Shown here: one piece after another, positions 1-27,854 of the stretch
Layout: each line of letters starts with the position of its first letter
How positions within the stretch are numbered: position 1 is the first letter of the stretch
DNA from: Sphingomonadaceae bacterium
GTDB lineage: Bacteria; Pseudomonadota; Alphaproteobacteria; Sphingomonadales; Sphingomonadaceae
DNA: 64,000 bases
Assembly (NCBI GenBank): GCA_947476735.1
Contig: CANJRZ010000001.1
Coordinates: 17,288 to 81,287 of the forward strand
Direction of reading: 5' to 3'
Notes under the pieces: generated by a model
What the model saw: the letters and a program-made list of their open reading frames with translations, nothing else
Databases searched by the model: none
Told to the model about the DNA's origin: nothing
Position numbers and translations under genes: made by a program

Positions 1-702
1 TGCGGGCGTAAAGGGATCCGTGTCGCCTCCATGAAAGCCGTAAAAATAGGTAAAGCCTTGCCCAGTAGGCCAGCGATCAAACGGCCCTGCAGCGCTCTGC
101 TCCCATTCCGGCGTGATATGCCACTTGCCGAAGGCACCAGTCGTGTACCCATTTTGCCGCATCGTCTCGGCGATCATCCCTGTCGACTTTGGAATAACCG
201 ACGTATAGCCCTCATATCCAGTTGGCAGGTTGTTGAGATTGCCCATATTTACGTTGTGGGGTTCGCGCCCGGTAAGCAGTGCCGCTCGCGTAGGCGAGCA
301 TATAGCGGTCGTGTTGAACTGATTATAGCGCGCGCCTCGCGATGCCAGGGCTTCGACTGCGGGTGTCGGAATAAGGCCCCCGAATACTGTGCTCGATCCA
401 AACCCTTCATCGTCGGTCATGATGAGCAAGACGTTTGGCGCTCCCGCGGGAGCCACTGGGCTCTGCGGCCACCGCGCAGGGCCCGATTCCGCTGCCGTCC
501 GCCCCACATCGGTCTGGCCCGTCGGTTCGGCAGGCGGCAAGACCCTCTGGGCTGAGGCTCCCGAGGCACTCATGAAGAGTACCGCCAGACCAGTTAGACC
601 GAATATAGACGAGCCTTTTCCAAGCCAGACCATGATACGACGCTTTTGGAGTCCAATGGCTTCTTCTTGAGGGCGGATCGCGGGCGTTTTTTTATTCTTC
701 AT
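1..702 (-). CDS. Arylsulfatase (type I, Cys-type), N-terminal part; runs off the window edge
   Basis: Hand translation of the minus strand from ATG at 702 (SD GAGGAG) is open to base 1. It reads ..APNVLLIMTDDEGFG..NTTAICSPTRAALLTGR..FGKWH..RWPTGQGFTYFYGF. The CxPxR formylglycine motif has its Cys codon at 298-300. Absent from the ORF track because its stop is outside the window. Confidence 0.93.
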   Translation of the reverse strand, partial: MKNKKTPAIRPQEEAIGLQKRRIMVWLGKGSSIFGLTGLAVLFMSASGASAQRVLPPAEPTGQTDVGRTAAESGPARWPQSPVAPAGAPNVLLIMTDDEGFGSSTVFGGLIPTPAVEALASRGARYNQFNTTAICSPTRAALLTGREPHNVNMGNLNNLPTGYEGYTSVIPKSTGMIAETMRQNGYTTGAFGKWHITPEWEQSAAGPFDRWPTGQGFTYFYGFHGGDTDPFTPA

Positions 703-867
703 GGTTCGCTCTCCTCTTCGAGCAAGCATCAATGTCCAACCCGAGTCACCGCCGCTGATCATCTTGATAGAGGCCGAAGACCCGTCGTCATCAGGCTCCC
801 GCCAAGCCGCTCACTCGCAAAAGAAAGCTTGCCTGTCAATATGATTGGTATATTGAATATATTATTG

Positions 868-888
868 ATAGTTTATAATGATTACTAT
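868..888. promoter_or_regulatory. Candidate operator ATAGT-N11-ACTAT in the AT-rich divergent sulfatase/TBDR promoter
   Basis: atagtttataatgattactat; the 19-bp core matches 14/19 to the reverse complement of the site at 14777-14795. Confidence 0.55.
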
Positions 889-932
889 TATGCAGATGTG
901 CAGATTCCAGTGTGCCACGCTTGATTTAGGGG

Positions 933-3341
933 ATGCGACCGATGAAACGCCTTAGCCTCAATGACTTTCTGACAAGCTGTGCGTTTGTGGCGTTAGCCGC
1001 TGCATCGCCGGGGTTCGCTCAAACATCTGCTGCAGAGATCACCCCGGTGGCAGTGGGTGATGATGTGGGCGATATCGTGGTGACTGCGAACAAGCGCGAG
1101 GAGCGCTTGAACAGGCTCGGTTTGACGGTGACGGCGATTTCTGGTGCGGCACTTGCGGAAAGAAGGATCACCTCGCTTCAGGACGTTGCGGCCGCAGTAC
1201 CAGGTCTGACGTTCGCGCAGAGCGCGGCCAACACGCCGATCCTGTCGCTGCGCGGCATCGGTTTCAACGAAAGTTCGCTCGGCGTTTATCCGGCGGTCAG
1301 CGTCTATGTCGACCAGGCGCCGCTGCCCTTCCCCGTGCTGGCCAGCCACGCCGCTTTCGACCTCCAGCGCATCGAGGTGCTCAAAGGTCCCCAGGGCACC
1401 CTGTTCGGCCAGAACTCCACCGGCGGCGCCATCAACTATATCGCCGCCAAGCCTACCCAGGAGTTCAAAGCCGGCGGCGACATTAGCTATGGCCGCTTCA
1501 ACATGATCGAAGGCAATGCCTTCATCAGCGGCCCCATCGCCGAGAATGTCCGCGCCCGCCTTGCCGTCTCAGGCCTCCGGGCCGACGGATGGCAGATCAG
1601 CAACAGCCGGCCCGACGACCGCAACGGCAAGCAAAGCTATGTCACCGGCCGCTTCCTGCTTGATTGGGACCCAAGCGAGGCCATCCACCTCTCGTTCAGC
1701 CTCAATGGCTGGCGTGACACCTCCGAACCGCAGGCCGGCCAGTTTATCCTGCTGCGGGGGCAGACACCCGCCGACGTGCAACCCCAGGAACTGGTCCAGC
1801 CGTTTTCGCCAGAAAAGCCCCGCGCCGCGGACTGGTCGACCGGCGTCGGGACGCCTCGCAGCAATCGTAAATTCTATCAGCCAGCCTTCCGTGCGGACGT
1901 CGAGCTCAACGAGAGCCTTACGCTCACCTCGCTGACATCCTATGCTCATTACACGCAGGATCAGACCACTGACGGCGACGGCTCGCCCCTGGTGGTCAAC
2001 AATTTCCAGCAAGATAACGGCTATCTTCACTCGTTCAATCAGGAGCTGCGTATCGCAAACGCTACCAGCTCGGCTTTCCGCTGGGTGCTGGGTGCCAACT
2101 ACGAGAGGAGCAACACCTTCCAGCGCCAGTTGCTCGTCTACAGCGATAATTCGAGCAATGCTCCTTCCAAGCTGTTCCTGCAGCGAAACTTTCAGCAAGG
2201 GCAGCAATCGATACGCAACTATGCGTTCTTCGGAAACGCCGAGTTCGACCTTACCCCCGACATCACCCTGAAAGCGGCCGCGCGCTACACCGATTCCCGC
2301 AACCGCGCCGCGATCTGCGGTTATGACGCCGGCGACGGCAATGCCGCTAACTTTTTCAATTTTCTCGGCACCCGACTTGGCACTGTGCCATTCACTCGCG
2401 TTGGATCGTCGGGCTCCGCCGATGGAAACTGCTTCTCGCTCAACGGGAACAATGTTCCAAGCGGCGTGCCCTATAAAAATACTTTGAGCGAGGATAATGT
2501 TTCCTGGCGCGTCGGACTCGATTACCGGCTCAATCCAGCCGTGTTGCTCTATGCAAACGCCTCGCGCGGTTACAAGGCCGGCAGCTATCCGATCCTCGCT
2601 GCGGCGTCGATCTCACAGTTTATGCCCGTAACCCAGGAATCAGTCACTGCCTTTGAGGGTGGCTTTAAGGTAAAATTGTGGGATAGCCGGATCCAGATCA
2701 ATAATGCAGCTTTTTATTATAAATATAAAGACAAACAAGTACTTACGAAAGATAGATTTCTAGTTTTCGGAGTTCTTGACATACTTCGAAACATCCCCAA
2801 ATCTCGGGTACTCGGATTGGAGAGCGAGTTCACGATCAGACCAGTCGCCGGGCTGACCATGGCGGCGGCCATCACCTATCTTGATACCAAGATTCAAAGA
2901 TATCTGGGCGTCGACTACATCGGCACCAATCGCAACTTCGCTGGCGAGCCACTCCCGTTCGCGCCAAAGTGGAACTATAGTTTTAACGTCGACTATCGTT
3001 TAAAGACGAATGGCGGCGGCACTCCATTTGTCGGAGTCAGCGTGAATGGCCACTCCTCGTCCGACACCGTGCCCGGCGGCGGCACGATCCCCGTCACGTC
3101 GGCGCCCACAACACGAATCTTGCCTGGCTTAGCCTTTCCGTTTCGTACCAACTCCTACACCACGGTCGACGGCAGACTGGGTTATGAGGCTCCCGGAGGC
3201 CGCTGGAGGGCGATGGTGTGGGGTAAGAATATCTTCAACAGATATTACTGGACCAACGTGGTCACGCGGGCGGACTTCAGCTCTAGATATGCTGGAAAAC
3301 CCGCCACCTACGGCCTAACGATCGGCTTCAATATTGAATGA
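933..3341 (+). CDS. TonB-dependent outer-membrane receptor
   Basis: Signal peptide, TonB box region DIVVTANKRE, plug motif RIEVLKGPQGTLFGQNSTGGAIN, 802 aa, terminal aromatic residue (..GFNIE). Confidence 0.95.
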   Translation: MRPMKRLSLNDFLTSCAFVALAAASPGFAQTSAAEITPVAVGDDVGDIVVTANKREERLNRLGLTVTAISGAALAERRITSLQDVAAAVPGLTFAQSAANTPILSLRGIGFNESSLGVYPAVSVYVDQAPLPFPVLASHAAFDLQRIEVLKGPQGTLFGQNSTGGAINYIAAKPTQEFKAGGDISYGRFNMIEGNAFISGPIAENVRARLAVSGLRADGWQISNSRPDDRNGKQSYVTGRFLLDWDPSEAIHLSFSLNGWRDTSEPQAGQFILLRGQTPADVQPQELVQPFSPEKPRAADWSTGVGTPRSNRKFYQPAFRADVELNESLTLTSLTSYAHYTQDQTTDGDGSPLVVNNFQQDNGYLHSFNQELRIANATSSAFRWVLGANYERSNTFQRQLLVYSDNSSNAPSKLFLQRNFQQGQQSIRNYAFFGNAEFDLTPDITLKAAARYTDSRNRAAICGYDAGDGNAANFFNFLGTRLGTVPFTRVGSSGSADGNCFSLNGNNVPSGVPYKNTLSEDNVSWRVGLDYRLNPAVLLYANASRGYKAGSYPILAAASISQFMPVTQESVTAFEGGFKVKLWDSRIQINNAAFYYKYKDKQVLTKDRFLVFGVLDILRNIPKSRVLGLESEFTIRPVAGLTMAAAITYLDTKIQRYLGVDYIGTNRNFAGEPLPFAPKWNYSFNVDYRLKTNGGGTPFVGVSVNGHSSSDTVPGGGTIPVTSAPTTRILPGLAFPFRTNSYTTVDGRLGYEAPGGRWRAMVWGKNIFNRYYWTNVVTRADFSSRYAGKPATYGLTIGFNIE

Positions 3342-3846
3342 TGTAATCTCCTACCGGCCGCGCCACTGTGATGACCCGCTCCATCGGGGCGTCCTACCGG
3401 TTGAATTGCAATCCAGTTGGCCGGCCGCTTCGACCAGCTAACTCAAGGATCTGAAGCGTCCCGTCATCCTGTCGTCGAGGCAACTAAACCTCGAGCTGCC
3501 AGGATGATGGCGCTGCGGCGGATGCCGGAGCACAAATCTGAATCGCTTTGGCGTACGGCCCAGTGGCTTGCTGCCGCGCCCGGTGGTGTGACATTTACCC
3601 TGGCGGCAATCGGCTGAGGTAGGCTACGACCGCGCATTCGCCCTGCGAGAACGGAAGAGAAGCCACCGGTCTTACACCGTCGGCGAGTAGCACTACCGCC
3701 TTCACCGGTGACTTCCAAGTTGCTCAGCCGATAGATGGTCGCTCGAAACCCTGGTTAACCCGCCGATGTGGAGAATCGCGACGGTGCCTGGCGCCTCTCG
3801 GCAAGCTATCGAGGTCGCCCTCCGTTCATAACTCGCCTACCTATAC

Positions 3847-4782
3847 TTACGGATCAAGGCGAACAATGCAGCGGAAGCCGAGGTGTGATGTGGACGTATC
3901 CTCGGGCTGGGGGTAACGGGCTGCTGGGCGGTAGCGCGCGCAATAACTGGGCGCGCAAAGATGCGAGCCGCCCTTGATAACCATCGTGCGGACCGTGACG
4001 CCCGATGAAAGAGCATCAGGATGAATCTGATCGCCGAATTGGCAACAGCCCCCCACCGCATCGCTTCCACCGTAGAGTTCTCGAGTCCATTCCCAGACGT
4101 TGCCAATCATGTCGACAAGTCCATACCGGTTGGGCGGATAGGTTCCTACAGGTGAGGTCCGCTTGAGCGGACCGTCGTCTTCTGCGTGGCAGGGAAAGAT
4201 TCCGTGCCATATATTTGCGGGCACGCGACCAGCGACCTCCCTGCGATTTCCCCAGGCATAATCCTTTGCCTTGAGCCCGCCCCGCGCCGCATATTCCCAT
4301 TCGGATTCGGTGGGAAGCACCTTGCCAACCCACTTGGCGTAGGCCTCGGCATCCCGAAGGGCGACGTGAACAACAGGGTGGTGTTCTAGGCCGAGCAGAG
4401 AACTCCCCAGTCCGAGCGGCCGGTGCCAGCACGCGCCTTCGCAGAGCTTCCACCACTGGAGCGGATCGCTGAGAGATATCGGGCGGGGGGCGGGGAAGAA
4501 GACGAGTGACGCGGGGCGGATCAGCTCAGGCCGGATGCCGGGATAGTAGGCAGCTTTTGGTTCCTCCTCGGCCAGCGTCACATAGCCGGTCGCCTTCACG
4601 AACCGGGAAAACGCTTCGTTCGTCACCGGCGTCTCGTCGATCCAGAATGGCGCGACCGCAACCTCGCGCACCGGCGCTTCGTCGGGATAGTGCCTTTCGG
4701 ATCCCATGCGGAATGTGCCGCCAGGTAGAAGGCGCATGCCGTGAGTCATGACGGAATCTGGTGTTATAGAAGAGGCAGTCAC
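3847..4782 (-). CDS. Formylglycine-generating enzyme (SUMF1/FGE-sulfatase domain)
   Basis: GTFRMGS, LPTESEWEYAARGG, GNVWEW, KGGSHLCAPSYCARYRPAAR, GFRC motifs. Start set at GTG 4782 with GGAG SD. Confidence 0.9.
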   Translation of the reverse strand: MTASSITPDSVMTHGMRLLPGGTFRMGSERHYPDEAPVREVAVAPFWIDETPVTNEAFSRFVKATGYVTLAEEEPKAAYYPGIRPELIRPASLVFFPAPRPISLSDPLQWWKLCEGACWHRPLGLGSSLLGLEHHPVVHVALRDAEAYAKWVGKVLPTESEWEYAARGGLKAKDYAWGNRREVAGRVPANIWHGIFPCHAEDDGPLKRTSPVGTYPPNRYGLVDMIGNVWEWTRELYGGSDAVGGCCQFGDQIHPDALSSGVTVRTMVIKGGSHLCAPSYCARYRPAARYPQPEDTSTSHLGFRCIVRLDP

Positions 4783-4860
4783 TCTATCTCCATGGTGAGG
4801 CCGTTGCCGACAAAAGCTGTATGGTCCATGTCCGCGAATCACCCTGTCATTGTCCGCCGA

Positions 4861-5307
4861 TCAGCCGTCGACGATCGCCTGTAGATTGGCTTCCATTTTC
4901 TGCAGCGCGGAAATGGCATGTTCCAGCTCTTCAGTCGTGATGCCCGCGAGCGCCGCGTCCTGGACATCGGTGCTCGACTGCCGGATTTGCTCGACGACAT
5001 GACGCCCTTCGGCGCTCAGGTGTACGCGCTTCATGCGGCGGTCGACGGCATCGATCTTGCGCTGGATCAGGCCGGTCTTTTCCAGCCGATCGATCAGCCC
5101 TCCCAAGGCGACCTTGCCCATGTTGAGTTCGTCGGCCAATTCGCCTTGCGATTTGCCGTCATGCAACGAAATATAAGTGAGTATCCACCATTGGCCGCCG
5201 GTGATCCCCAGCGGCTTCATCACCTGGTCGATCGCCTTTCGGCGGACGCGTGATACCTCATGCACCAGAACGCCGAAAGAAAGCTTTCTGCTTAAACCTT
5301 TAGCCAC
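4861..5307 (-). CDS. MarR-family transcriptional regulator
   Basis: 148 aa, wHTH with LIDRLEKTGLIQRKIDAVDRR. Confidence 0.92.
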   Translation of the reverse strand: MAKGLSRKLSFGVLVHEVSRVRRKAIDQVMKPLGITGGQWWILTYISLHDGKSQGELADELNMGKVALGGLIDRLEKTGLIQRKIDAVDRRMKRVHLSAEGRHVVEQIRQSSTDVQDAALAGITTEELEHAISALQKMEANLQAIVDG

Positions 5308-5398
5308 CCGTTATTTTCCATATCGAACTGTTGAGCTGTCATTACCGAAAAGATCGACATATTTCCAGCCGCTTCCACGCCGGCATTGCGCGCGGCTG

Positions 5399-6328
5399 TT
5401 AGAAACCCACCCGGTCGCCTCCCTTGAGCAGCAATATCGCGCGTGCCTCTGCCGGTGTCGCGATCGTCAGGCCCAATCCCTCGACGATCTTGCGCACACG
5501 CCGCACCTGTTGGGCATTGGTCTGTGCCAGTTCGCCCTTTCCAATCCACAAGGAATCCTCGAGCCCGACGCGGACATTGCCACCCAGCGCGGCGCCAAGG
5601 GCGGCGACGCGCATCTGGGCCGCGCCGGCCCCCAGGACCGACCACTGGAAATCACTCCCGAACAGGCGATCGGCCGTCCGCTTCATGACGAACACATCAT
5701 CGGCATGATTGCCGATGCCGCCCAGGATACCGAATACACTCTGGATGAAGAAAGGCGGCTTGATCAGGCCGCGGTCGACGAAATGCGACAGCGTGTAGAG
5801 ATGGCCGATATCATAGCATTCCACCTCGAAGCGAGTGTCGTTTTCGCTACAGCTGCGCAGGATATCTTCGATATCGCCCAGCGTATTCCGGAAGAAGCCG
5901 TGGCGCGTGCCTTCTAGATATTCGCGCTCCCAGCCATCAAGGCCACGATAGCGTTCGAGCATCGGATAGAGGCCGAAGTTCATCGTCCCCATGTTGAGCG
6001 ACGCGATCTCAGGCTTGAATTCCACCGCCGGGCGCAGGCGATCCGCGATGCACATTGTCTGCGAACCGCCGGTGGTAATGTTGAGCACTGCGTCAGACCG
6101 CTGGCGGATAGCCTGCAGGAAGGGCTTGAACAACGCCGGGTTCTGGTCCGGCTGACCGGTTCCGGGATTACGCGCATGAAGATGGATGACGGCGGCGCCC
6201 GCCTCCGCCGCGCCGATAGCGGCCTCGGCGATCTGTTCCGCCGTGACCGGCAGATGGGGCGACATCGACGGTGTATGGATGCTGCCGGTCACCGCGCAAG
6301 TGATGATGACTTTGCCTGACTTGGCCAA
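5399..6328 (-). CDS. BKACE / DUF849 beta-keto acid cleavage enzyme
   Basis: VIITCAVTGSIHTPSMSP, IHLHAR, SLNMG, VRVGLED motifs. Confidence 0.92.
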   Translation of the reverse strand: MAKSGKVIITCAVTGSIHTPSMSPHLPVTAEQIAEAAIGAAEAGAAVIHLHARNPGTGQPDQNPALFKPFLQAIRQRSDAVLNITTGGSQTMCIADRLRPAVEFKPEIASLNMGTMNFGLYPMLERYRGLDGWEREYLEGTRHGFFRNTLGDIEDILRSCSENDTRFEVECYDIGHLYTLSHFVDRGLIKPPFFIQSVFGILGGIGNHADDVFVMKRTADRLFGSDFQWSVLGAGAAQMRVAALGAALGGNVRVGLEDSLWIGKGELAQTNAQQVRRVRKIVEGLGLTIATPAEARAILLLKGGDRVGF

Positions 6329-6344
6329 AGTGAGTTCCTTCAGT

Positions 6345-7274
6345 TCACAGCAGGCGGGCGGGAAGCCCCGCCTGCTTCAGCTTGCCCGGCAGGGGATGCC
6401 CGACGATATGTTCGGCGAGACGTGCCGCCTCGATCAGCGCCGGGATATCGAGGCCGGTCTCGATCCCAAGCTCCGCGCAAAGATAAGCTAGATCCTCGGT
6501 GCAGAGATTCCCGGCCGCCGGCCGATTCCCGGCAAAGGGACAGCCACCGAGACCGCCGATCGAGGTGTCGAACCGAGCTACGCCCAGTTGAAGGCCGGTC
6601 AGCGCGTTGGCCATTCCGACACCCCGTGTGTCATGCAGATGTAGGCCGAGCGGCAGTTCAGGCCAATGGCTGCGGACCTCGGCGATGACGCGTTCGATCG
6701 TCGGTGGAGATGCCGAACCGATGGTGTCGCACAGATAGACCACTTCCGGATCGGGAATGACCGACAGCAGGTCCTCGATCGCGCCGATCACCAGCGTGGG
6801 GGCTATCTCGCCCTCATAGTTGCATCCGAAGGCCGTGAAGACGTAGGCCGCGAAAGCATCGATGGCGGCATCGCGGTAATCGCTCATCAGGCTCTGCTGC
6901 CCCGCAAGCATTTCCGCGCGGTTGCGATTGTTGTTCTTGATCCCGAAGGTCTCCGAAGCGCTGGCGACAACGAGGCCGGTCAGATCGAGCGGCGTCGCCC
7001 TGGCGCGCGCGAAACCCGACGCATTAAGCCACAAGCCGGTATAGCGTACCCCTGCGCGTTTGCGCAGCCCGGCGGCGACCTCCTCCGCATCGGCCATTTG
7101 CGGGACATATTTTGGGCTGACGAATGAGCAGCAAGCAATGTCGCCCAACCCGGTCTCAGCCAGCGCATCGATGAGCTCGATCTTCGCTGCGGCAACTATG
7201 CCGGGGGGTTCGCTCTGGAATCCCTCGCGCGGCCCTTCCTCGCAAATCCGTACCGTGCTGGGCAGGTCGCTCAT
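6345..7274 (-). CDS. HMG-CoA lyase-like (DRE-TIM) acyl-CoA lyase
   Basis: EEGPREGFQ, LHLHDTRG, GLGGCPFA. Confidence 0.88.
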   Translation of the reverse strand: MSDLPSTVRICEEGPREGFQSEPPGIVAAAKIELIDALAETGLGDIACCSFVSPKYVPQMADAEEVAAGLRKRAGVRYTGLWLNASGFARARATPLDLTGLVVASASETFGIKNNNRNRAEMLAGQQSLMSDYRDAAIDAFAAYVFTAFGCNYEGEIAPTLVIGAIEDLLSVIPDPEVVYLCDTIGSASPPTIERVIAEVRSHWPELPLGLHLHDTRGVGMANALTGLQLGVARFDTSIGGLGGCPFAGNRPAAGNLCTEDLAYLCAELGIETGLDIPALIEAARLAEHIVGHPLPGKLKQAGLPARLL

Positions 7275-7278
7275 GATA

Positions 7279-8097
7279 TTAACGGCCGGTCCACCGGGGC
7301 GGGCGCTTTTCGTTGAATGCTGCGATGCCTTCGATGGAATCCTCGGTCAGCGCCAGGGTCGCCAGCTGCGTTTCCATGAACGAGATCGCCTGTTCTATCG
7401 TCATGTTCCGCGTAGCCCTCAACGCATGTTTGCCACGGCGGATGGCAGTGGGTGATTTGCCGACCAGCCGGTCGATCAGCCAGTCAGTCCTGGCGTCCAG
7501 TTCTCCGATCGGCGTCACATAATTGACAAGGCCGATGTCCAGCGCTTCCGCGGCGCCAATCGGTTCGCCGGTCAGGCACAGTTCGGCAAATTTGCGGCGC
7601 GAGATAAGGCTCTGCAGCAAGGCGGAGACTTGCATCGGAAACATGCCGATCTTGACTTCCGGCAGGCCGAAAAGCGCATTATCACTCGCGACCGCCATGT
7701 CAGCCATGGTCAGGAGCCCCATGCCGCCGGCCATGCAATGGCCGTTTATGCGCGCGATGATCGGCAAATCGCAGCCATAAGCGGCGCGCAGAAGGTTGCC
7801 GAGAGGCGTGGTGGGCGCCGAGTGATCGAACTCGAAAGTCTTCGAATCGGGCTTGAGGTCGCCGCCGGCGCAGAAGGCGCTATCGCCCGCCCCGGTGAGC
7901 ACGATGGCGCGCAACCCGCTCACTTCGCGCGCGCTGACGATCCCGACGGCAAGCCGGGTCAGGACGTCATCGTTGAGCGCGTTGCGAACCTTCTCGCGAT
8001 TGATCGTCAACCAGCGGACAATGCCGCGATCCTCGACCAGCACGCTGTCGTCGGCCGGGCCGGGGTGGGGAATGATAGGGGCCGGTGTCGCGGTCAT
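7279..8097 (-). CDS. Enoyl-CoA hydratase/isomerase
   Basis: AFCAGGDL, GHCMAGGMGL, FGLPEVKIG. Start moved to ATG 8097 to avoid overlap with the upstream ACAD. Confidence 0.9.
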   Translation of the reverse strand: MTATPAPIIPHPGPADDSVLVEDRGIVRWLTINREKVRNALNDDVLTRLAVGIVSAREVSGLRAIVLTGAGDSAFCAGGDLKPDSKTFEFDHSAPTTPLGNLLRAAYGCDLPIIARINGHCMAGGMGLLTMADMAVASDNALFGLPEVKIGMFPMQVSALLQSLISRRKFAELCLTGEPIGAAEALDIGLVNYVTPIGELDARTDWLIDRLVGKSPTAIRRGKHALRATRNMTIEQAISFMETQLATLALTEDSIEGIAAFNEKRPPRWTGR

Positions 8098-8110
8098 GGC
8101 GCTGCCCGGT

Positions 8111-9366: not shown

Positions 9367-9385
9367 CTATAAACATTGATTACTG
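9367..9385. promoter_or_regulatory. Weaker copy of the 19-bp motif in the divergent ACAD/CaiB promoter
   Basis: ctataaacattgattactg; shares TGATTACT with the 868-888 site, while the left half is degenerate. Confidence 0.35.
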
Positions 9386-13535: not shown

Positions 13536-13554
13536 AAGTAATATATACGAACTA
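13536..13554. promoter_or_regulatory. Candidate 19-bp operator upstream of the ADH gene
   Basis: aagtaatatatacgaacta; 13/19 to the reverse complement of the 14777 site; AT-rich intergenic region. Confidence 0.45.
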
Positions 13555-14776: not shown

Positions 14777-14795
14777 TAGTACGTATTATGTACTA
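14777..14795. promoter_or_regulatory. Palindromic candidate operator TAGTAC-N7-GTACTA upstream of the LLM gene
   Basis: tagtacgtattatgtacta, with perfect 6-bp arms, next to TTGCCA at 14763. Confidence 0.6.
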
Positions 14796-14852
14796 ACTGA
14801 ATCCGGCGGGACCGATAGAGACCGTGCGCCACGAACAGGAAAAGGACTGCAG

Positions 14853-15965
14853 ATGACCATCAATCTCGGAATGTTTGCGATGCCGGTCCATGCGCCCGGA
14901 AAGGATTATCAGCAGTCGCTGCGCGAGGATCAGGAATGTGTAATCCTGGCCGATCAGCTAGGCTTCACCGAATTCTACATGGGCGAGCATCACACGTCCG
15001 GTATCGAGACGGTCACCAGCCCGCTCATCTTCTTCGCCAGCATCGCGCGCCTTACCAAGAATATCCGGCTCGGCAGCGGCGTGCTCAATCTGCCGCAGAT
15101 GCATCCGATCTCGGTCGCCTCGAACGTGGCGATGCTCGATCAGATGACCGACGGCCGCTTTATATTCGGTGGTGGTCCCGGCACGCTCGTCACCGATGTC
15201 GAGGCGTTTGGATCGGTGCCGATGGACGTGCGCGGGCGGATGGTCAAGGAATCGATGGATTTCGTGAAGAAGCTCTGGACATCCGAGCCTCCGATCGAGC
15301 TCAAGGGCGAGTTCTGGACGATCAAGATCAAGGACAAGGTTATTCCGAAATTCCGCGTCGGCTGGATGCCGAAGCCGAAGCAGCAGCCGCATCCGCCTTT
15401 CGCGTTGACCATGGTGTCGCCCAATTCATCGACCGCCAGAGCGGCGGGCGCGGAAGGGTGGATCCCGATCTCGGCTAACTTCGTGAACCGGCGCTATCTG
15501 CGCGGGCATTGGGAATCTTATGCCGAGGGCTGCGAATCGGTCGGTCGAAAGGCCGATCCCTCGACCTGGCGCGTTGCCCGTTGCTGCCTCGTCACGGAGA
15601 GTGACGCCGAAGCGGAGGACTATATCGCGGATCCCGACAACGGCATCAGCTTCTATTATTCGTTCATGCGGCACATCGCCGAGGTCGGTCGCGGTGCGCT
15701 GTATATGCTCAAGCCCGATCTCGACATGACCGACGAAGAAGCGACGGTCGACAAGATCGTGCCGTCCCAGGTAATCTATGGCAGCCGCAAGACGGTGCTC
15801 GAAAAGCTTGTCGCTCTGCGCGAGGAGATCGGTCATTTCGGCACGCTGATCATGACGGCGCATGATTGGGATCGGCCCGCCATGTGGCGGAGGTCGATGG
15901 AGATGATGGCGCAGGACGTGATCCCGCAATTCTCGGAGCATGTGAGGGACAGCGTGCCGGCCTAA
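14853..15965 (+). CDS. Luciferase-like (LLM) flavin-dependent monooxygenase
   Basis: FYMGEHH, IRLGSGV, LDQMTDGRFIFGGGPG; start ATG 14853 with AAGGA SD. Confidence 0.9.
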   Translation: MTINLGMFAMPVHAPGKDYQQSLREDQECVILADQLGFTEFYMGEHHTSGIETVTSPLIFFASIARLTKNIRLGSGVLNLPQMHPISVASNVAMLDQMTDGRFIFGGGPGTLVTDVEAFGSVPMDVRGRMVKESMDFVKKLWTSEPPIELKGEFWTIKIKDKVIPKFRVGWMPKPKQQPHPPFALTMVSPNSSTARAAGAEGWIPISANFVNRRYLRGHWESYAEGCESVGRKADPSTWRVARCCLVTESDAEAEDYIADPDNGISFYYSFMRHIAEVGRGALYMLKPDLDMTDEEATVDKIVPSQVIYGSRKTVLEKLVALREEIGHFGTLIMTAHDWDRPAMWRRSMEMMAQDVIPQFSEHVRDSVPA

Positions 15966-16032
15966 CCGGCAAGCCAGACGCCCGCATCCCTGCGCCTCGC
16001 CGCAGAAAGCCGGCCCATGACAGGACATAGCC

Positions 16033-17559
16033 GTGACAACGCATATCACCCGACCGGATATCTCTATCGCCCATGCCGACCGCTTCTTCATCGGGGGCGA
16101 ATGGGTGGATCCGTCGAGCTCGGCGATGATCGAGGTCATCAGTTCATCGACCGAAGAGCCGATCTATCGGGTCGCGGAAGCGCAGGTCGCCGACATAGAC
16201 CGTGCGGTAGAGGCGGCGCGCACCGCTTTTGACAGCGGCCCCTGGACTGAGATGACCCACCGGGAGCGGGCTCGCCATCTGCGTGCGATCGGTGCCGGAG
16301 TTCGTAAGCGTGCCGCCGAACTCGGCGCCATCTGGGCGGCCGAGATGGGCGTGACTTATGCGATAGCCGAGGCGATGACGCTTGGGGTGGGCGACGTGTT
16401 CGACTATTATGCCGGCCTCGGAGACAGTTTTCCGTTCATCGAGCGCCATAAACCGGCGGGCGGCAATGTCGGGTATCTGGTGCGTGAGCCGGTCGGCGTG
16501 GTGGGTGCGATCATCCCCTGGAACGCTCCGCTAACGCTGCTCAGCTACAAGGTGGCGCCGGCTCTGATCGCGGGCTGCACAATCATTCTTAAGGCCTCGC
16601 CGGAGGCCCCCGGCGTCCCGCTCGTGTTCGCCGAAATCTGCAAGGCGGCGGGCCTGCCCGATGGGGTGATCAACGTCCTTACCGCGGATCGCGAGGTCTC
16701 GGAAGCGCTTGTTCGACATGCTGGGGTCGACAAGATCGGATTCACCGGCTCGACCGCCGCAGGCCGGCGCATCGCATCGATATGTGGCGAACGGATAGCG
16801 CGCTTCACGCTCGAGCTCGGTGGCAAGTCCGCCGCCGTGGTTATGGACGATTACGATGTCGGCGCGGCGGCCGACGCCATATCGAGCATGGCTTCGCTGA
16901 TGACCGGTCAGGTCTGTTCGTCGCTGACCCGGGTGATCGTCTCGCAGAATCGCCATGACGCGATGGTCGAGGCGCTGGCCGCGTCGTTCAGCCGGACCAG
17001 GGTCGGCGATCCATTCGATCCTGCGGTGCAGATGGGGCCGCTCGCGATGGAGCGCCAGCGTGACCGGGTCGAGCAGTTGATCGCCCGCGGCTGTGCAGAT
17101 GGCGCGACACTCGCGACGGGGGGAGCGCGTCCTGCGCATCTCAACCGCGGCTATTATATCGAGCCGACAGTGTTCGGCGGCGTCCACAACGACATGGCGA
17201 TCGCCCGCGAGGAGTTTTTTGGACCGGTGCTGAGCGTAATCCCGGTGACGGGGGAGCACGAGGCGATCTCGATCGCAAACGACAGCATTTACGGCCTCAA
17301 CGCGTCAGTGTTCACGCATGATAATGATCGCGCCTTCGCGGCGGCCCGAAAGCTTCGCTCGGGAACGGTGGGACATAATATCTTCCGTACCGATTTCAGC
17401 ATTGCGTTCGGAGGGTTCAAGCAGTCGGGCATGGGCCGCGAAGGCGGTGTCGAGGGCCTGCTGCCCTATCTCGAATCCAAGACGGTCATCCTCGATGGGG
17501 AGCCGTCGACACTTCGCGAAAGCCTGGCCCCGTCATCGGGCTGGGCTGACGGCGGATAA
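16033..17559 (+). CDS. Aldehyde dehydrogenase
   Basis: IIPWN, FTGST, LELGGKS, catalytic GQVC, EEFFGPV. Confidence 0.93.
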   Translation: MTTHITRPDISIAHADRFFIGGEWVDPSSSAMIEVISSSTEEPIYRVAEAQVADIDRAVEAARTAFDSGPWTEMTHRERARHLRAIGAGVRKRAAELGAIWAAEMGVTYAIAEAMTLGVGDVFDYYAGLGDSFPFIERHKPAGGNVGYLVREPVGVVGAIIPWNAPLTLLSYKVAPALIAGCTIILKASPEAPGVPLVFAEICKAAGLPDGVINVLTADREVSEALVRHAGVDKIGFTGSTAAGRRIASICGERIARFTLELGGKSAAVVMDDYDVGAAADAISSMASLMTGQVCSSLTRVIVSQNRHDAMVEALAASFSRTRVGDPFDPAVQMGPLAMERQRDRVEQLIARGCADGATLATGGARPAHLNRGYYIEPTVFGGVHNDMAIAREEFFGPVLSVIPVTGEHEAISIANDSIYGLNASVFTHDNDRAFAAARKLRSGTVGHNIFRTDFSIAFGGFKQSGMGREGGVEGLLPYLESKTVILDGEPSTLRESLAPSSGWADGG

Positions 17560-17637
17560 AGATAGATCGCGATAATGGTTTAGTTCGGATCCCTGCGGTG
17601 GCCATCCAACCCCGCCGATCCGATGATGGAGATAGTC

Positions 17638-18930
17638 ATGACTGAGACCACGGCTGTTTTTGATGTTCCGAAAGCTCCCAAATCCGTCGTCGCAACGGTG
17701 CTCAATCCGGAATGCTACGCGGATGATCGCATTTACGAGGCTTATGCCTGGCTGAGGGCAAACAGCCCCGTAGCCTTGGTTGAGCATGACGATTTCGATC
17801 CATTTTGGATCATCACCAAATATGACGACGTGCGCGCCGTCGAACTCAACAGCACCGTATTCCGCAACAGTGTCCGCTCCTACAATCTGTGCGATCGCAA
17901 GAGCATCGAACATGTCCTAAAGATCAATGATGGCAGCCCCAATCTGATCGCGTCGCTCGTCGCGATGGATGCACCTCAGCACTCGGTCTACCGCAGGCTG
18001 ACCCAGAACTGGTTTCAGGGCACCAATCTGAAGAAACGCGAAGACGAAATACGCGTGATCGCCAGGCAGGCCGTCGCCAACATGATCGCCATCGGCCCGG
18101 AAGTCGATTTCGTCAGCGACCTCGCAACCGAATATCCGCTGCGCGTGATCATGAATATTCTGGGCGTCCAGGAAGCCGACTGGCCGCTGATGCTGCGGCT
18201 GACACAGCAGAATTTCGGCACGAAGGATCCTGAACTCAGCGGCGCCGCAGAGCCGCTGAAAGAAGAGCATTATGCCAATTTCATGCACGACATGGTCAAG
18301 GCATTTTCCACCTTCTTCACCGAGGTCAGCAACGACCGCCGGCGCAGCCCAAAGGAAGATCTCAGCTCAATCATCGCCAACGCCACGTTCGACGGTGCAC
18401 CGATCCCTTATGATATCGAGATGGGCTATTATATCACCATTGTTACCGGCGGGCATGACACGACGTCCTCCGCGACAGCGACGGCGGTGTGGCAGCTGGC
18501 TGAAAAGCCTGAGCTTCTGGCACGGATCAAGGCCGACCCGACGCTGATCCCGCATCTGGTGGACGAAGCGGTCCGGTGGAGCAGCCCGGTCAAGCATTTC
18601 ATGCGAACCGTTGGTGAAGACGCGACCATTGGCGGCCAGCCGGTCCGCGTGGGCGATTGGGTCATGCTGTGCTATGGTTCGGCCAATCGCGACGAGGATG
18701 TCTTCCCGCCGGAATTCACCGTGGAACGCACGCCGAACCGCCATCTCGCCTTCGGGATCGGGCCGCATCTGTGCCTGGGCCAGCATCTCGCAAAGATGGA
18801 AATGCGGATATTGTTCGAAGAGTTGCTGCCGCACATCAAGTCGATCAACCTGCGGGGCGTCCCCAAGCAGAGCGTCGACTGGTTCGTAAATGGGCCCAAG
18901 ACGGTGCCCATCACCTTCGAATACGAATAG
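17638..18930 (+). CDS. Cytochrome P450, CYP108-like
   Basis: I-helix GGHDTT, EAVRW, heme motif [10 protein letters not shown]. Overall resemblance to P450terp is from recall. Start at ATG 17638 with GGAG SD. Confidence 0.92.
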
Positions 18931-18967
18931 GCGGCGGGTGCCGGATTTTGCCCGTGCGGGTCAAGGC

Positions 18968-19765
18968 ATGAGCCGCTTCGCGGGAAAGGTCGCGATCGTG
19001 ACCGGCGGCGCATCCGGAGTTGGCGAAGCGCTCGTCAGCCTGATTGTGGCGGAAGGTGGCGTCGTCGCCGTCGCCGACACTAACCCGGAGCGTGGCGATG
19101 CCCTCGCCGAATCCCTGGGGACCGACCGTGTCCTGTTCGATATCTGTGATGTCGCCGATGAGACGGCGGTATCGCACTTCGTCGATATGGTCGGCAAACG
19201 CTGGTCGGGTGTCGACTATCTCGTAAACAATGCCGGCGTCGTCGGGATGGGCTCCACGATGGATGTCGATGCATCGGCTTGGCGCCGCATCATCGATGTC
19301 GACCTCTCGTCGGCCTTCCATTTCTGCCGGTCGACGATACCGCTGATGGCAGGCCGCGATGGTGCGTCGATCGTCAATACCGCGTCGGTGTCGGGGTTGT
19401 TCGCCGACTATGGCATGGCCGCGTACAATGCCGCGAAGGGAGGGCTCATCAACTATAGCCGGAACCTGGCGCTTGATCTGTCCAGGCACGGCATCCGGGT
19501 CAATGCCGTCTGCCCTGGCGCGGTCGATACGCCGATGTTCGACGGCGTTCGCGCGGTCCCTTCGTTGCATGATGCCTATGTGCGGGCGATCCCGCTGGGG
19601 CGTCTCGGCCGTGCGGAGGAAGTGGCGAACGTGATTGCCTTCCTGTTGTCTGCCGATGCCTCCTATGTCACCGGAGCGGTGATCACCGTCGATGGCGGCA
19701 CGACCTGCGGCACATCCTTCCCAGACCTGAACGCCCACATGGCTGCGCTCAGAGAGAGCTATTGA
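18968..19765 (+). CDS. SDR oxidoreductase
   Basis: [17 protein letters not shown]. Confidence 0.92.
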
Positions 19766-19780
19766 TATGGAGCGGTTGAG

Positions 19781-20551
19781 ATGAGGTCTGTTGCACTCGT
19801 TACCGGGGCCGCTGGCGATCTGGGCGCCGCCAGCGCCGTTGCGCTTGCCCGGGCGGGCTTCGCGGTCGTCATGACCGATTTGAACAGCGACGCTGTTCAG
19901 CGGCTGTGCGCTAGTCTGCCCGGCGACGGCCACAGCGCGTTCGCTCTGGACGTCACGTCTGAAATGTCTGTCGCCGATGTCTTCGGCCGAGTCGAAGAAC
20001 AGGTCGGGCCGGTCAGCGTGCTGGCACATCTCGCCGGGATCATCGACGGCGCGGGCCCCATGAACGGCATCCTGGTCGCCGATCTGGACATGGCCGTCTG
20101 GGACAAGGTGTTTGCAGTCAATGCGCTCGGCACCTTCCTGTGCGTGCGCGAAATGGTGCGCCGTCGGCGGCACCTTGCTGTCGAACATGGGCGGATCATC
20201 GCCTTTTCCTCGCTCGCCGGGCAGATGGGTGGCTATGTTGCGGGCGCGGCTTATGCTGCGTCGAAGGCTGCGATCATTGGCTTCACCAAGAATATCGCAC
20301 GCGAAATCGCGCCGCTTGGCATTACTGCCAATGTTGTCGCGCCCGGGGCCATCGATTCGAGCATGAACCGCCTGGCAATTGGGGCCCCCCGCGAAAGCCC
20401 CGCAGGGAATTCGGCGGGTGTCGGCACTATCCCGATGGGCCGTAAGGGCACTTCTTCGGAGGTCGCTGACCTGGTCGCTTTTCTCGCGTCTCCGCAAGCA
20501 GCCTATATTACCGGTCAGACGCTCGCCATCAATGGCGGCAGCTATATGTAG
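19781..20551 (+). CDS. SDR oxidoreductase
   Basis: TGAAGDLG, YAASK. Confidence 0.9.
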   Translation: MRSVALVTGAAGDLGAASAVALARAGFAVVMTDLNSDAVQRLCASLPGDGHSAFALDVTSEMSVADVFGRVEEQVGPVSVLAHLAGIIDGAGPMNGILVADLDMAVWDKVFAVNALGTFLCVREMVRRRRHLAVEHGRIIAFSSLAGQMGGYVAGAAYAASKAAIIGFTKNIAREIAPLGITANVVAPGAIDSSMNRLAIGAPRESPAGNSAGVGTIPMGRKGTSSEVADLVAFLASPQAAYITGQTLAINGGSYM

Positions 20552-20709
20552 CGGTCATCGGCACCGGAAAGCGAAACTGCCGATAAGAAGGGAGTCTGAG
20601 CGACAGTGATATTGCAGGACAGTTCCGCGCCGCTCCGAGGCCTGTCGTTCGGCGGCAAGTCCATCTGCTCCGGCGGCTTCGGTCCATTGGGGAGTCGCTG
20701 AGCACCGCC

Positions 20710-21465
20710 ATGGCCGACCTATTGAACCTGGCGGGTAAAACCGCCTTCGTTACCGGTGCGTCGGGCGGCCTCGGCGCGCATTTCGCGGCGGTACTGGCAA
20801 GTGCGGGCGCTGCGGTGATCGTTGGCGCGCGGCGCGAGGACGCGCTGGCCGATGTGGCTGCGCGGATCCGAGCGGCGGGCGGCGCATGCACGACCGCGAC
20901 GCTCGACATATCGAGCGCCGCGAGCATCACCTCAGTCGAGCCGCTGCTGGCGAAGGTCGACATTCTCGTCAACAATGCCGGCATCGTGATCGAGAAGCCG
21001 TTCCTCGAACAGAGTGAGGCCGATTGGGACGCCGTGGTCGATACTAACGCCAAGGGCATGTTCCTGCTGACCCAGGCGGTCGCGCGGGCGATGCGAGCGC
21101 GGGGCGCCGGTGGATCAGTGATCAACATCGCCTCGATCCTGGGACTGCGCCAGGGCGGCATGGTAATGACCTATGCAGTGTCCAAGGCGGCAGCGATCCA
21201 GTTCACCAGGATCGCGGCGCTTGAACTGGCCCGCTTCGGAATCCGCGTCAACGCGATCTGTCCCGGCTATATCGCCACCGACCTCAATAGCGCGTTCTGG
21301 GAGACCGAATCCGGCAAGGCGATGCTGAAGCGCATCCCCCAGCGGCGCCTGGGCGCATTGCCCGAACTCGACGGCCCGCTGCTGCTGCTGGCCTCGGACG
21401 CCTCGTCTTACATGACCGGATCGGTGATCGTTGCCGACGGCGGCCATCTCGTCAGCACCCTGTGA
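20710..21465 (+). CDS. SDR oxidoreductase, LvaD-like (candidate 4-oxoacyl-CoA reductase)
   Basis: TGASGGLGAHFA, YAVSK, C-terminal LDGPLLLLASD..DGGHLVSTL resembling LvaD (recall). Confidence 0.85.
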   Translation: MADLLNLAGKTAFVTGASGGLGAHFAAVLASAGAAVIVGARREDALADVAARIRAAGGACTTATLDISSAASITSVEPLLAKVDILVNNAGIVIEKPFLEQSEADWDAVVDTNAKGMFLLTQAVARAMRARGAGGSVINIASILGLRQGGMVMTYAVSKAAAIQFTRIAALELARFGIRVNAICPGYIATDLNSAFWETESGKAMLKRIPQRRLGALPELDGPLLLLASDASSYMTGSVIVADGGHLVSTL

Positions 21466-21478
21466 ACGGAGAGATATT

Positions 21479-22630
21479 TTGAGCGAACGGGCTGAGGCGA
21501 TTGCCGCGAAGGTCGAGGCCTTCGTCCGCGAGACAGTCTTCCCCTATGAGAAGGACCCGCGCGCGACGTCGCATGGCCCGACCGACGAACTGGTCCAGGA
21601 GATGCGGGCCAAGGCGGGGGCGGCGGGGGTGCTGACCCCGCATATCCTGTCTGACGGATCGCACCTCAACCAGCGCGAGACCGCGATCGTTCTGAAGAAG
21701 TCCGGACTGTCCCCGCTGGGGCCGCTCGCGGTGAACACCATGGCGCCCGACGAGGGCAATATCTACCTGCTCGGCAAGGTCGGGACGCCCGAGCAGCAGC
21801 GCCGCTTCCTCGACCGGCTCGTCTCGGGCGAGAGCCGCTCGGCCTTTTTCATGACCGAACCGGCGAGCGAGGGTGGCGCGGGCTCCGACCCATCGATGAT
21901 GCGGACGACCTGCCGGCTCGACGGCAATCACTGGGTGATCGACGGGCGCAAGGCGTTCATCACCGGGGCGCAAGGCGCGAAGGTCGGCATCGTTATGGCG
22001 AAGGCCGAGGAGGGCGCGTGCATGTTCCTCGTCGATCTGCCCGATCCGGCAATCCGGATCGAGCGGCTGCTCGAGACGATCGACAGCTCGATGCCGGGCG
22101 GCCATGCGGTCGTCGCGATCGACAATCTGCGGGTGCCGGCCGACCAGATGCTTGGGGCGGCGGGCGAGGGCTTCAAATATGCCCAGGTGCGGCTGAGCCC
22201 GGCGCGGCTGTCGCACTGTATGCGCTGGCATGGCTGCGCGACCCGGGCACAGGAGATCGCGACCGACTATGCCTGCCGGCGCGAGGCCTTCGGCAAGAAG
22301 CTGGTCGACCATGAGGGGGTCGGCTTCATGCTCGCCGAAAATCTGATCGACCTGAAGCAGGCCGAGCTGATGATCGACTGGTGCGCCGATGTCCTCGACA
22401 GCGGGTCGCTCGGCACGGTCGAAAGCTCGATGGCCAAGGTGGCGGTGTCGGAGGCGCTCTACCGGGTGGCCGATCGCTGCGTCCAGGTGATGGGCGGTAC
22501 CGGCGTCTCGGGCGACACGGTGGTCGAGCAGATCTTCCGCGAGATACGGGCGTTCCGGATTTATGACGGGCCGACCGAGGTCCACAAATGGAGCCTCGCC
22601 AAGAAGATCAAGCGGGATCACGCCCGGTGA
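21479..22630 (+). CDS. Acyl-CoA dehydrogenase, LvaC/ACAD10-11-like
   Basis: DPRATSHGP, APDEGN, FFMTEP..GSDP, RIYDGPTEVH; TTG start at 21479 with GGAGAG SD. Confidence 0.9.
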   Translation: MSERAEAIAAKVEAFVRETVFPYEKDPRATSHGPTDELVQEMRAKAGAAGVLTPHILSDGSHLNQRETAIVLKKSGLSPLGPLAVNTMAPDEGNIYLLGKVGTPEQQRRFLDRLVSGESRSAFFMTEPASEGGAGSDPSMMRTTCRLDGNHWVIDGRKAFITGAQGAKVGIVMAKAEEGACMFLVDLPDPAIRIERLLETIDSSMPGGHAVVAIDNLRVPADQMLGAAGEGFKYAQVRLSPARLSHCMRWHGCATRAQEIATDYACRREAFGKKLVDHEGVGFMLAENLIDLKQAELMIDWCADVLDSGSLGTVESSMAKVAVSEALYRVADRCVQVMGGTGVSGDTVVEQIFREIRAFRIYDGPTEVHKWSLAKKIKRDHAR

Positions 22631-23688
22631 GCGGGACCGGGCAAGCGGAGAATGAGGGCACGACTCCGGTCCGCCCGGGCTTCGCTTTCGACGAGGCGAG
22701 CCTCGCCAGCTGGATGTCGGAGCATGTACCGGGCTTCGAAGGGCGCTTGAGCGTCGAACAGTTCAAGGGTGGCCAGTCCAACCCGACTTACAAGTTGCTG
22801 ACGCCGCGGAGGACATATGTGCTTCGACGCAAGCCGCCGGGACAGCTTCTCAAAGGTGCCCATGCCGTCGAGCGCGAGGCGCAGGTGCTGACCGGCCTTG
22901 AGAAAGCGGACTTCCCGGTGGCCCACGTCCACGCCCTGTGTACCAACGATGCGGTGATCGGTAGTTGGTTCTATGTGATGGACATGGTCGATGGGCGGGT
23001 GTTCTGGGACGCCGCCTTGCCGGATGTGCCGCGCGAACATAGGGCCGCTTATTACGACGCGATGAACGCGACGATCGCGGCGCTTCACAGGGTCGATTAT
23101 GAAGCGGTGGGGCTCGGTGACTACGGCAAGCCCGGCAATTATTTCGAACGGCAGATCGCCCGCTGGTCCAGGCAATATCTCGACGATGCCGAAGCGGGAC
23201 GGGATGTGAACATGGACCGCCTGATAGAATGGCTCCCCGCCAACGTCCCACCCGGTGACGATACCAGCATCGTCCATGGCGACTTCCGTATCGATAATAT
23301 GATTTTCCACCCGACCGAGCCGCGCATCCTTGCCGTCCTCGATTGGGAACTCTCAACGCTCGGTCATCCGCTCGCCGACTTTGCCTATCACGCTATGATG
23401 TACAGAATGCCGCCGCATATCGTCGCCGGTCTGGGCGGCGCTAACCTTTCCGACCTGAGCCTTCCGAGCGAGGGTGACTATGTCGCCGCCTATTGCACGC
23501 GCACGGGGCGGGACGCGATCTCGAATTACAGCTTCTATCTCGCTTTCAATTTCTTCCGCCTCGCGGCGATCTTCCACGGCATCAAGGGCCGGGTGATCCG
23601 AGGCACTGCGGCGTCGGCGCAGGCGGCGGAACGCGCCGCTCTTTTTCCGGAACTGGCTGCAATCGCGTGGTCGCAGGCTACCGCATAG
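22627..23688 (+). CDS. APH-family phosphotransferase, ACAD10/11 kinase-domain-like
   Basis: GGQSNPTY, VLRRKPPG..AHAVERE, VHGDFRIDN, LDWELSTLG; GTGA overlap with the ACAD stop. Confidence 0.92.
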   Translation: MSGTGQAENEGTTPVRPGFAFDEASLASWMSEHVPGFEGRLSVEQFKGGQSNPTYKLLTPRRTYVLRRKPPGQLLKGAHAVEREAQVLTGLEKADFPVAHVHALCTNDAVIGSWFYVMDMVDGRVFWDAALPDVPREHRAAYYDAMNATIAALHRVDYEAVGLGDYGKPGNYFERQIARWSRQYLDDAEAGRDVNMDRLIEWLPANVPPGDDTSIVHGDFRIDNMIFHPTEPRILAVLDWELSTLGHPLADFAYHAMMYRMPPHIVAGLGGANLSDLSLPSEGDYVAAYCTRTGRDAISNYSFYLAFNFFRLAAIFHGIKGRVIRGTAASAQAAERAALFPELAAIAWSQATA

Positions 23689-27852: not shown

Positions 27853-27854
27853 GA

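Follow-up and report, generated by a model that had tools for sequence, protein, structure and literature searches.

Repressors of the MarR/SlyA family that act through palindromic operators over catabolic promoters are well known, among them HpaR, CouR and its relatives (hydroxycinnamoyl-CoA) and HucR; a 19-bp dyad fits MarR dimers, and the release of MarR proteins by acyl-CoAs rests on a few known cases. The alpha-terpineol operon of Pseudomonas, which encodes the cytochrome P450terp (CYP108A1), also holds genes for an alcohol dehydrogenase (ADH) and an aldehyde dehydrogenase (ALDH). The ats-sft cluster of P. putida S-313 is controlled by the LysR-type regulator SftR together with sulfur starvation. 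In that cluster the TonB-dependent receptor SftP occurs with sulfatases, and sulfate esters are used for sulfur supply (PMC7711191). Here we compare these systems with a locus in the draft genome (4.58 Mb, 63% GC) of a Sphingomonadaceae bacterium (assembly GCA_947476735.1). The window that was analyzed is a stretch of 64,000 nucleotides, C1:17288-81287, where C1 is contig CANJRZ010000001.1. It carries the gene of a SlyA-like MarR protein, catabolic genes of a terpenoid-like type, and genes for an arylsulfatase and a formylglycine-generating enzyme (FGE), and several of its promoters share a 19-bp palindrome. A sequence-only reading of this DNA had listed four related 19-mers and had proposed that a single MarR regulon handles the uptake, desulfation and breakdown of a sulfated compound. 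The explanation that we favor, with somewhat better than even confidence and on sequence comparisons, is that this MarR operator regulon is a mobile terpenoid-type catabolic island into which the sulfatase and FGE genes were spliced. Mobile catabolic islands on which a MarR protein acts through a palindromic operator are a standard kind of system; what is unusual here is the accessory insertion.

As in the described MarR/SlyA systems, a small winged-helix dimer is encoded in the cluster and an inverted repeat of about 19 bp lies over the -10 of several pathway promoters. We regard it as nearly certain that this repeat is a real operator, with the consensus TAGTA-N9-TACTA and the fuller form TAGTwCGTATATATTACTA. 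The window contains two exact copies of the dyad TAGT-N11-ACTA where 0.08 would be expected, a count that none of 100 shuffles reached, and the whole genome contains three, all on C1, at island promoters and within a span of 21 kb; the dyad is also the sole 4-mer inverted dyad (spacers of 3-15) with three copies in the 4.45 kb of intergenic DNA of the island. Four sites, designated S0, S1, S3 and S4 (Table 1), took ranks 2-7 among 4.57 million genome positions when scored with a leave-one-out matrix (S4, 2; S1, 3; S3, 7). When they were scored with a matrix derived from the sites of other genomes only, S4, S0, S3 and S1, in that order, ranked 1-4 genome-wide. S4 is the best palindrome, TAGTAC-N7-GTACTA, and the lone zero-mismatch match to TAGTA-N9-TACTA in the genome, and S3, which has one mismatch to the dyad, shares 17 of its 19 bases with S0 in reverse complement. 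S0 was absent from the list in the sequence-only reading; it precedes a second TonB-dependent receptor gene, TBDR_A, upstream of the window.

That the 19-mers are a chance resemblance of AT-rich promoters has a negligible probability, and for the four sites it is already refuted, given that all exact genome copies lie in the island, that the four sites head the genome-wide ranking and that their positions are conserved in orthologous loci. At a threshold of 17 bits or more, eight matches were found in 173 kb of orthologous loci against one in 1.28 Mb of high-GC control loci, a density about 60 times higher. The AT-rich composition that the sequence-only reading had wanted controlled for does not remove the enrichment either: when the background was restricted to stretches of ≤45% GC, 3 of the 14 matches with at most one mismatch fell in the island, which contributes 2.4% of such positions. 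The points in favor of chance are that with one mismatch allowed the bare eight-base pattern is not significant in the window (four matches against 2.1 expected) and that two other candidates stand at background level. The case therefore rests on the exact copies, the matrices and the comparison with other genomes. The four 19-mers of the sequence-only reading were all found where it had placed them, and those beginning at 869, 13536 and 14777 are far beyond chance, but the one at 9367 (S2), which it had itself called weak, is unsupported as a full site.

Two candidates were rejected as operators. S2 ranked 517 in the genome by the leave-one-out matrix and 3884 by the matrix from other genomes, so it is not a full site, and the sole part of it that is conserved is the half CAGTAAT; the candidate at 846-864 ranked 1360. 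The interval from BKACE to MarR carries no motif in any lineage. As a separate observation, the best matrix matches outside the island were at C95:4344 (18.5 bits) and C49:5956 (18.0 bits), the latter embedded in GTTCT-N4-AGAAC and resembling a TetR-type operator rather than a MarR site.

The criterion applied for a repressor operator was an inverted repeat of 16-20 bp over the core promoter, and the 19-bp dyad of S0 indeed lies on the -10: it begins within the -10 hexamer of a promoter, TTGACA-18-TATAGT, with 11 of 12 matches. The receptor promoters of two related loci, L034 and L038, align with this TTGACA...ATATAG and operator layout, and their flanks differ. By eye, S4 overlaps a TATAGT -10-like hexamer and S3 a TTGCCT-17-TATATA promoter. 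An operator placed over the promoter in this way is what would be expected of a repressor. The ACAD promoter has a different arrangement, in which this genome shares a conserved block TAGTAAT..ATGTTTATAGA....TTGACAGTT with its four closest relatives; within it the left half-site alone fits the operator. The half-site and the TTGACAG block are conserved in five orthologous promoters, and in more distant orthologues this promoter bears a perfect site.

The family criterion applied to the protein encoded by the MarR gene was a MarR domain with a winged helix-turn-helix and a length of some 140-170 aa. The protein has 148 aa and matches PF12802 with 50 bits (cut-off 27) and PF01047 with 40.6 bits (cut-off 24.6). 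Its closest solved relative is SlyA (E 4e-14), and there are full-length matches to the SlyA, PA3341 and MepR structures. Unlike the described MarR/SlyA regulators, it passes no named equivalog, scoring below the NCBIfam cut-offs for SlyA (75.4 against 120), HpaR (43.5 against 121), BilQ (57.3 against 125) and Saro_0803 (41.5 against 200), and to judge by these scores it represents an unnamed subfamily. Orthologues in the protein database are 57-82% identical, are nearly all from metagenomes and have a conserved helix-turn-helix region; the closest relative of the locus that was found is in a Sphingomonadaceae metagenome-assembled genome. There is no second copy of the MarR in the genome, and four genomes of the same genus lack an orthologue. 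The best homologues in 300 genomes of the family reach 42-46% identity; none of them is from the same genus, and the motif is missing from their loci. No orthologue above 49% identity occurs in the plasmid collection. The subfamily, found on metagenome contigs and in one metagenome-assembled genome only, is thus almost absent from sequenced isolates. The subfamily and its operator are also undescribed: no description of TAGTA-N9-TACTA or of the regulon content was found in the literature searched, nothing was found on BKACE together with MarR or on sulfatase, TonB receptor, Novosphingobium and P450 in combination, and a paper on an alpha-terpineol biosensor makes no mention of MarR, TetR, AraC, operator, P450terp or CYP108. 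A precise operator and regulon can in this way be assigned to an uncharacterized MarR subfamily, and the pair could serve as a biosensor part for its inducer.

Ten independent contexts of MarR orthologues were compared. Their clusters combine ACAD-(ECH-HMGL)-BKACE-MarR with CoA-transferase-reductase-ECH-CoA-transferase-ADH, with LLM-ALDH-P450-receptor and/or with SDR-ACAD-APH, where ECH stands for enoyl-CoA hydratase, HMGL for an HMG-CoA-lyase-like protein, LLM for a luciferase-like monooxygenase and SDR for a short-chain dehydrogenase/reductase. The core ACAD-ECH-HMGL-BKACE operon ending in MarR has the same order in L002, L034, L038 and L042, and the four genes for CoA-transferase, enoyl-reductase, ECH and CoA-transferase (9401-13487) are also present in L034 and L038. 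A matrix from the four sites of this genome found its best match at the functionally equivalent promoter in 9 of the 10 orthologous loci; L002 has a weak half-site alone at its ACAD promoter. It counts against this evidence that the cross-validation is not fully independent, since the foreign sites came from the first matrix, yet the positions of those sites at orthologous promoters are independent.

By the gene tables, every motif-bearing locus has the MarR and no other regulator is common to them all; the MarR is therefore the probable binder, and we consider with good confidence that the protein encoded at 4861-5307 binds the operator. The alternative is that the operator is real but is bound by another regulator, either the small helix-turn-helix protein encoded at ~23760-24012 or a factor encoded elsewhere. 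In favor of this, the operon of the MarR itself is without a full site both here and in the closest relatives. We nevertheless judge it improbable: in L040, L041, L043 and L121 a perfect site lies on the ACAD-BKACE-MarR operon promoter, no other regulator is seen in L034, L038 and L123, and a dyad of this length suits MarR dimers. Furthermore, a global regulator is excluded by the confinement of all strong sites of the genome to the island. If the MarR is the binder, its dimer would occupy four or more promoters at the -10/start region, those of TBDR_A, of TBDR_B, of Zn-ADH and of the LLM-ALDH-P450-SDR...ACAD-APH operon, and would repress them until a compound of the pathway releases it; by analogy with the described systems such release by a ligand is probable. 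The single MarR regulon of the sequence-only reading thus stands as a local regulon defined by a palindrome, with the MarR as its likely binder on the strength of the motif shared by orthologous loci, but the purpose that was assigned to it, the use of a sulfated compound, is a tentative proposal.

The catabolic genes point to a terpenoid-like substrate. P450 nomenclature places proteins with >40% amino-acid identity in the same family, and the island P450, which is 47.0% identical to P450terp (1CPT) over 415 aligned residues, falls in CYP108. It is accompanied, as in the P450terp operon, by ADH and ALDH. Among solved structures, the LLM is closest to the 3,6-diketocamphane monooxygenase of the camphor (cam) pathway (E 8e-33). 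Unlike the P450terp and cam systems, the island cluster shows no ferredoxin or reductase genes, and it adds CoA-transferase, BKACE and lva-like modules, TonB receptors, a MarR and a sulfatase. The BKACE passes the equivalog NF053538 (3,5-dioxohexanoate:acetyl-CoA transferase) over its full length, with 515.9 bits against a cut-off of 430. The trio of SDR, ACAD-family and APH-type kinase genes (20710-23688) has what we take to be the domain make-up of LvaD, LvaC and LvaA, and its likeness to the lva operon of P. putida, an ACAD10/11-type 4-hydroxyacyl-CoA route, is one of domain architecture only. The CYP108 family is recognized for monoterpenoid oxidation (PMC13627977).

From these assignments we infer that the regulon serves to oxidize a terpenoid-like compound, activate it with CoA, open its ring and remove its branched chain. 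The compound would be taken up by a dedicated TonB receptor and its methyl group oxidized by the CYP108-type P450, ADH and ALDH, followed by CoA activation by the family-III CoA-transferases and ring opening by the flavoenzyme that resembles diketocamphane monooxygenase. The resulting 4-hydroxy/oxo-acyl-CoA would be handled by the lva-like trio, and the branched end would be removed by ACAD, ECH, HMG-lyase and BKACE. The block from LLM to APH (14853-23688) has orthologues in L123 that are 62-80% identical, and in distant MarR-orthologue loci the SDR-ACAD-APH trio sits directly on an operator-bearing divergent promoter. In a search of plasmids for the cluster, the sole matches were to this trio and to BKACE (71-78% nucleotide identity); pSA2, a megaplasmid of the sphingomonad N. 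resinovorum, has the trio and lacks the MarR. The ACAD of the trio has a second copy in the genome, at C250:5192-6346, that is 92% identical at the protein level. The genome also appears to be unusually rich in P450 genes, given that tblastn with the CYP108-like P450 returned 67 matches over at least half its length.

The sulfatase and FGE genes both look functional. The sulfatase matches PF00884 and carries a C-x-P-x-R motif of the Cys type (CSPTR, at residue 155 of the longer reading), a signal-like N-terminus containing RR, and a GGAGAG ribosome-binding site before its start codon. Its closest solved relative is the P. aeruginosa arylsulfatase 1HDH (PAS/AtsA-like; E 4e-58), beyond which it has a C-terminal extension of ~200 aa, and its FGE partner is 3.1 kb away. 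The FGE matches PF03781 with 246 bits over positions 3-254 of 255 and has the cysteine pair LCAPSYC; its gene lies 18-110 bp behind that of the MarR, and no terminator-like site was seen in 3300-5500. Neither gene occurs in any of the ten orthologous MarR clusters, and, conversely, the MarR cluster, its receptor and the motif are all absent from 77 genome loci with sulfatase homologues (≤60% identity); over every locus with a sulfatase homologue, 79 in all, neither the MarR nor the motif is present. Because the MarR clusters lack sulfatase and FGE and the sulfatase loci lack the MarR cluster and motif, the two genes are lineage-specific insertions, in this genome only, into an existing terpenoid-type regulon. 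The sulfatase was placed ahead of the glutathione S-transferase (GST) gene, in the operon divergent from TBDR_B, and FGE behind MarR. Elsewhere in the genome, sulfatase and FGE genes form two further pairs, each adjacent and co-directional (C278, 1730-4824; C70, 345-2815), and the split over two regulon operons is seen at the island alone among the three pairs. Such split placement within operons argues for functional integration. The island shows a recent evolutionary step in which two genes were spliced separately into two operons of a regulon that already existed.

Whether the sulfatase is co-regulated with the regulon is, on the sequence evidence, evenly balanced in our judgment, and a number of points weigh against it and against the favored explanation as a whole. 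No convincing sulfatase promoter was found; S1 lies 46 bp from the TBDR_B ATG and 167 bp from the sulfatase start, and the candidate at 846 is unsupported. The FGE-carrying ACAD...MarR operon has a half-site alone in this lineage, so what ties FGE to the regulon would be its co-transcription with the gene of the regulator rather than an operator. Finally, the two nearest metagenomic relatives of the sulfatase, in L125 and L126 (68-72% identical), belong to receptor-GST-sulfatase-FGE modules whose palindrome, AACAAnCGnTTGTT, is a different one and presumably serves another regulator as operator, and whose receptor, also different, is 24-26% identical. The desulfation wiring proposed in the sequence-only reading therefore stands only in part: FGE is at the end of the minus-strand run with MarR and BKACE, but its operon lacks a full operator and the orthologous clusters lack a sulfatase.

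These points bear on the possibility, which we think unlikely without dismissing it, that the regulon is real and that the sulfatase and FGE are functionally separate from it (sulfur scavenging or unrelated), having landed there during the receptor duplication, with S1 controlling TBDR_B alone. The ten clusters without either gene and the position of S1 beside the receptor gene agree with such a separation, as do the scars of rearrangement in the island (ECH and GST fragments) and the nature of the sulfatase family, a very large, generic one (7801 proteins at E≤1e-150) with homologues in many different contexts. A TonB receptor clustered with sulfatases for sulfur supply is also known from P. 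putida S-313 (PMC7711191), and the island resembles that ats-sft cluster in the pairing of an outer-membrane TonB-dependent receptor gene with a sulfatase gene. Unlike ats-sft, however, the island pair sits inside a MarR regulon for carbon catabolism, and its receptor, a paralogue of the one that belongs to the regulon itself, is unrelated to the sulfatase-linked receptors elsewhere (24-26% identity). Marks of the ats-sft type are sulfur-starvation control by LysR regulators (SftR/CysB) and ABC transporter genes; the annotation of the island's genes shows no gene for a LysR regulator or an ABC transporter. The sulfatase and FGE genes also form no self-contained cassette, each being within a regulon operon, in contrast to the other two pairs of the genome, and the sulfatase sits between the divergent promoter region and a conserved GST. 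The neighbors of its nearest relatives, namely receptor, GST, SDRs, a flavin monooxygenase and a lactonase-like gene, would fit an alicyclic sulfate ester as a carbon source.

Under the favored explanation, a terpenoid-type regulon with both genes spliced in, the cell would also be able to import and desulfate a sulfate ester of the same substrate class, and if co-induction is real the island would be a clear example of a pathway extending its substrate range to sulfated conjugates. That a sulfated terpenoid-like compound is the carbon substrate is a tentative proposal, which we hold to be less probable than its negation. It is at least as doubtful that the island is a complete transferable route for growth on sulfate esters of alicyclic or terpenoid alcohols under one MarR operator, in which TonB uptake and an exported formylglycine sulfatase would be followed by the CYP108, Baeyer-Villiger-type, lva-like and BKACE enzymes. 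Were it so, the island would provide the first description of an S1 sulfatase that a carbon-catabolic MarR regulon has recruited to act on a non-carbohydrate substrate.

The coordinates of the features are collected in Table 1. Genes were assigned with Pfam and NCBIfam, and the gene order of the sequence-only reading, from sulfatase (-) and receptor (+) through FGE-MarR-BKACE-HMGL-ECH-ACAD (-) to CoA-transferase...P450...APH (+), was borne out by Pfam.

Table 1. Features of the island and operator matches in related loci. Coordinates are those of the window unless contig C1 or a locus (L) is named.
Feature	Position	Strand	Remarks
Direct repeat, left	C1:7503-10710		serine recombinase, DUF2924, DUF3489
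Operator S0, TAGTCCGTATATATTACTA	C1:11172-11190		6.1 kb upstream of window; 27 bp before TBDR_A
TonB-dependent receptor TBDR_A	C1:11217-13622	+	outside window
GST	C1:14841-15503	-	upstream of window; directly behind sulfatase
Cys-type (S1) arylsulfatase, 803 aa	<1-702	-	PF00884; ATG 702; end C1:15578, upstream of window
Operator S1, TAGTTTATAATGATTACTA	869-887		divergent sulfatase/TBDR_B promoter region; exact TAGT-N11-ACTA dyad
TonB-dependent receptor TBDR_B	933-3341	+	Pfam Plug and beta-barrel
FGE	3847-4749	-	PF03781; probable start ATG 4749; cysteine pair GGSHLCAPSYCARYR
SlyA-like MarR-family regulator	4861-5307	-	PF12802/PF01047
BKACE	5399-6328	-	Pfam, NF053538
HMG-CoA-lyase-like	6345-7274	-	Pfam
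ECH	7279-8139	-	Pfam
ACAD	8111-9277	-	Pfam
S2, CTATAAACATTGATTACTG	9367-9385		half-site only, CAGTAAT on minus strand; 9 bp upstream of ACAD -35
CoA-transferase III	9401-10633	+	Pfam
NADPH enoyl-reductase type	10626-11651	+	Pfam
ECH	11644-12366	+	Pfam
CoA-transferase III	12363-13487	+	Pfam
Operator S3, AAGTAATATATACGAACTA	13536-13554		84 bp before Zn-ADH start
Zn-dependent ADH (Zn-ADH)	13638-14732	+	PF08240/PF00107
Operator S4, TAGTACGTATTATGTACTA	14777-14795		58 bp before LLM start
LLM	14853-15965	+	Pfam
ALDH	16033-17559	+	Pfam
CYP108-like P450	17623-18930	+	Pfam
SDR	18968-19765	+	Pfam
SDR	19781-20551	+	Pfam
SDR of lva-like trio	20710-21465	+	Pfam
ACAD of lva-like trio	21479-22630	+	Pfam
APH-type kinase of lva-like trio	22588-23688	+	Pfam
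Direct repeat, right	25491-28698		serine recombinase, DUF2924, DUF3489
Foreign operator matches before receptor	L034:13417, L038:11382, L042:6513, L123:4857
Foreign operator matches before ADH	L034:1736, L038:1788		L034 match 19.5 bits
Foreign operator matches before LLM	L123:173, L124:7316, L122:7411
Perfect TAGTA-N9-TACTA	L040, L041, L043, L121		ACAD/SDR divergent promoter
Palindrome AACAAnCGnTTGTT	L126 ~1075-1095; L125 ~7095-7115, ~9965-9985

Two 3.2-kb direct repeats, 90% identical to each other, bracket the island of ~32 kb (C1:10711-42777), and in L034 the orthologous cluster is followed by the same module of serine recombinase, DUF2924 and DUF3489. The outline is that of a modular terpenoid-type pathway travelling on serine-recombinase islands. 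TBDR_B is 68% identical to its paralogue TBDR_A and 67% identical to the receptors of L034 and L038. The GST is 79-80% identical to the GSTs of those two loci, and the range for GST and TBDR_A together against their GST and receptor is 73-80%. TBDR_A is the true orthologue of the receptor in the related clusters. GST and receptor form a divergent pair in L034 and L038, without a sulfatase; here the GST is behind the sulfatase, and the sulfatase-GST pair faces TBDR_B. No recognizable gene or relic was found in the non-coding gaps at 3342-3846 and C1:13623-14840. Beside the left recombinase repeat, at C1:10708-10907, there are relics of 50 codons of an ECH2-like gene (86% amino-acid identity) and, facing TBDR_A, of the first 18 GST codons (89%), and a sigma-70-like promoter, TTGTCA-18-TATAAT, is still directed at the GST relic. 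These relics are the scars of the duplication or rearrangement behind TBDR_A and TBDR_B.

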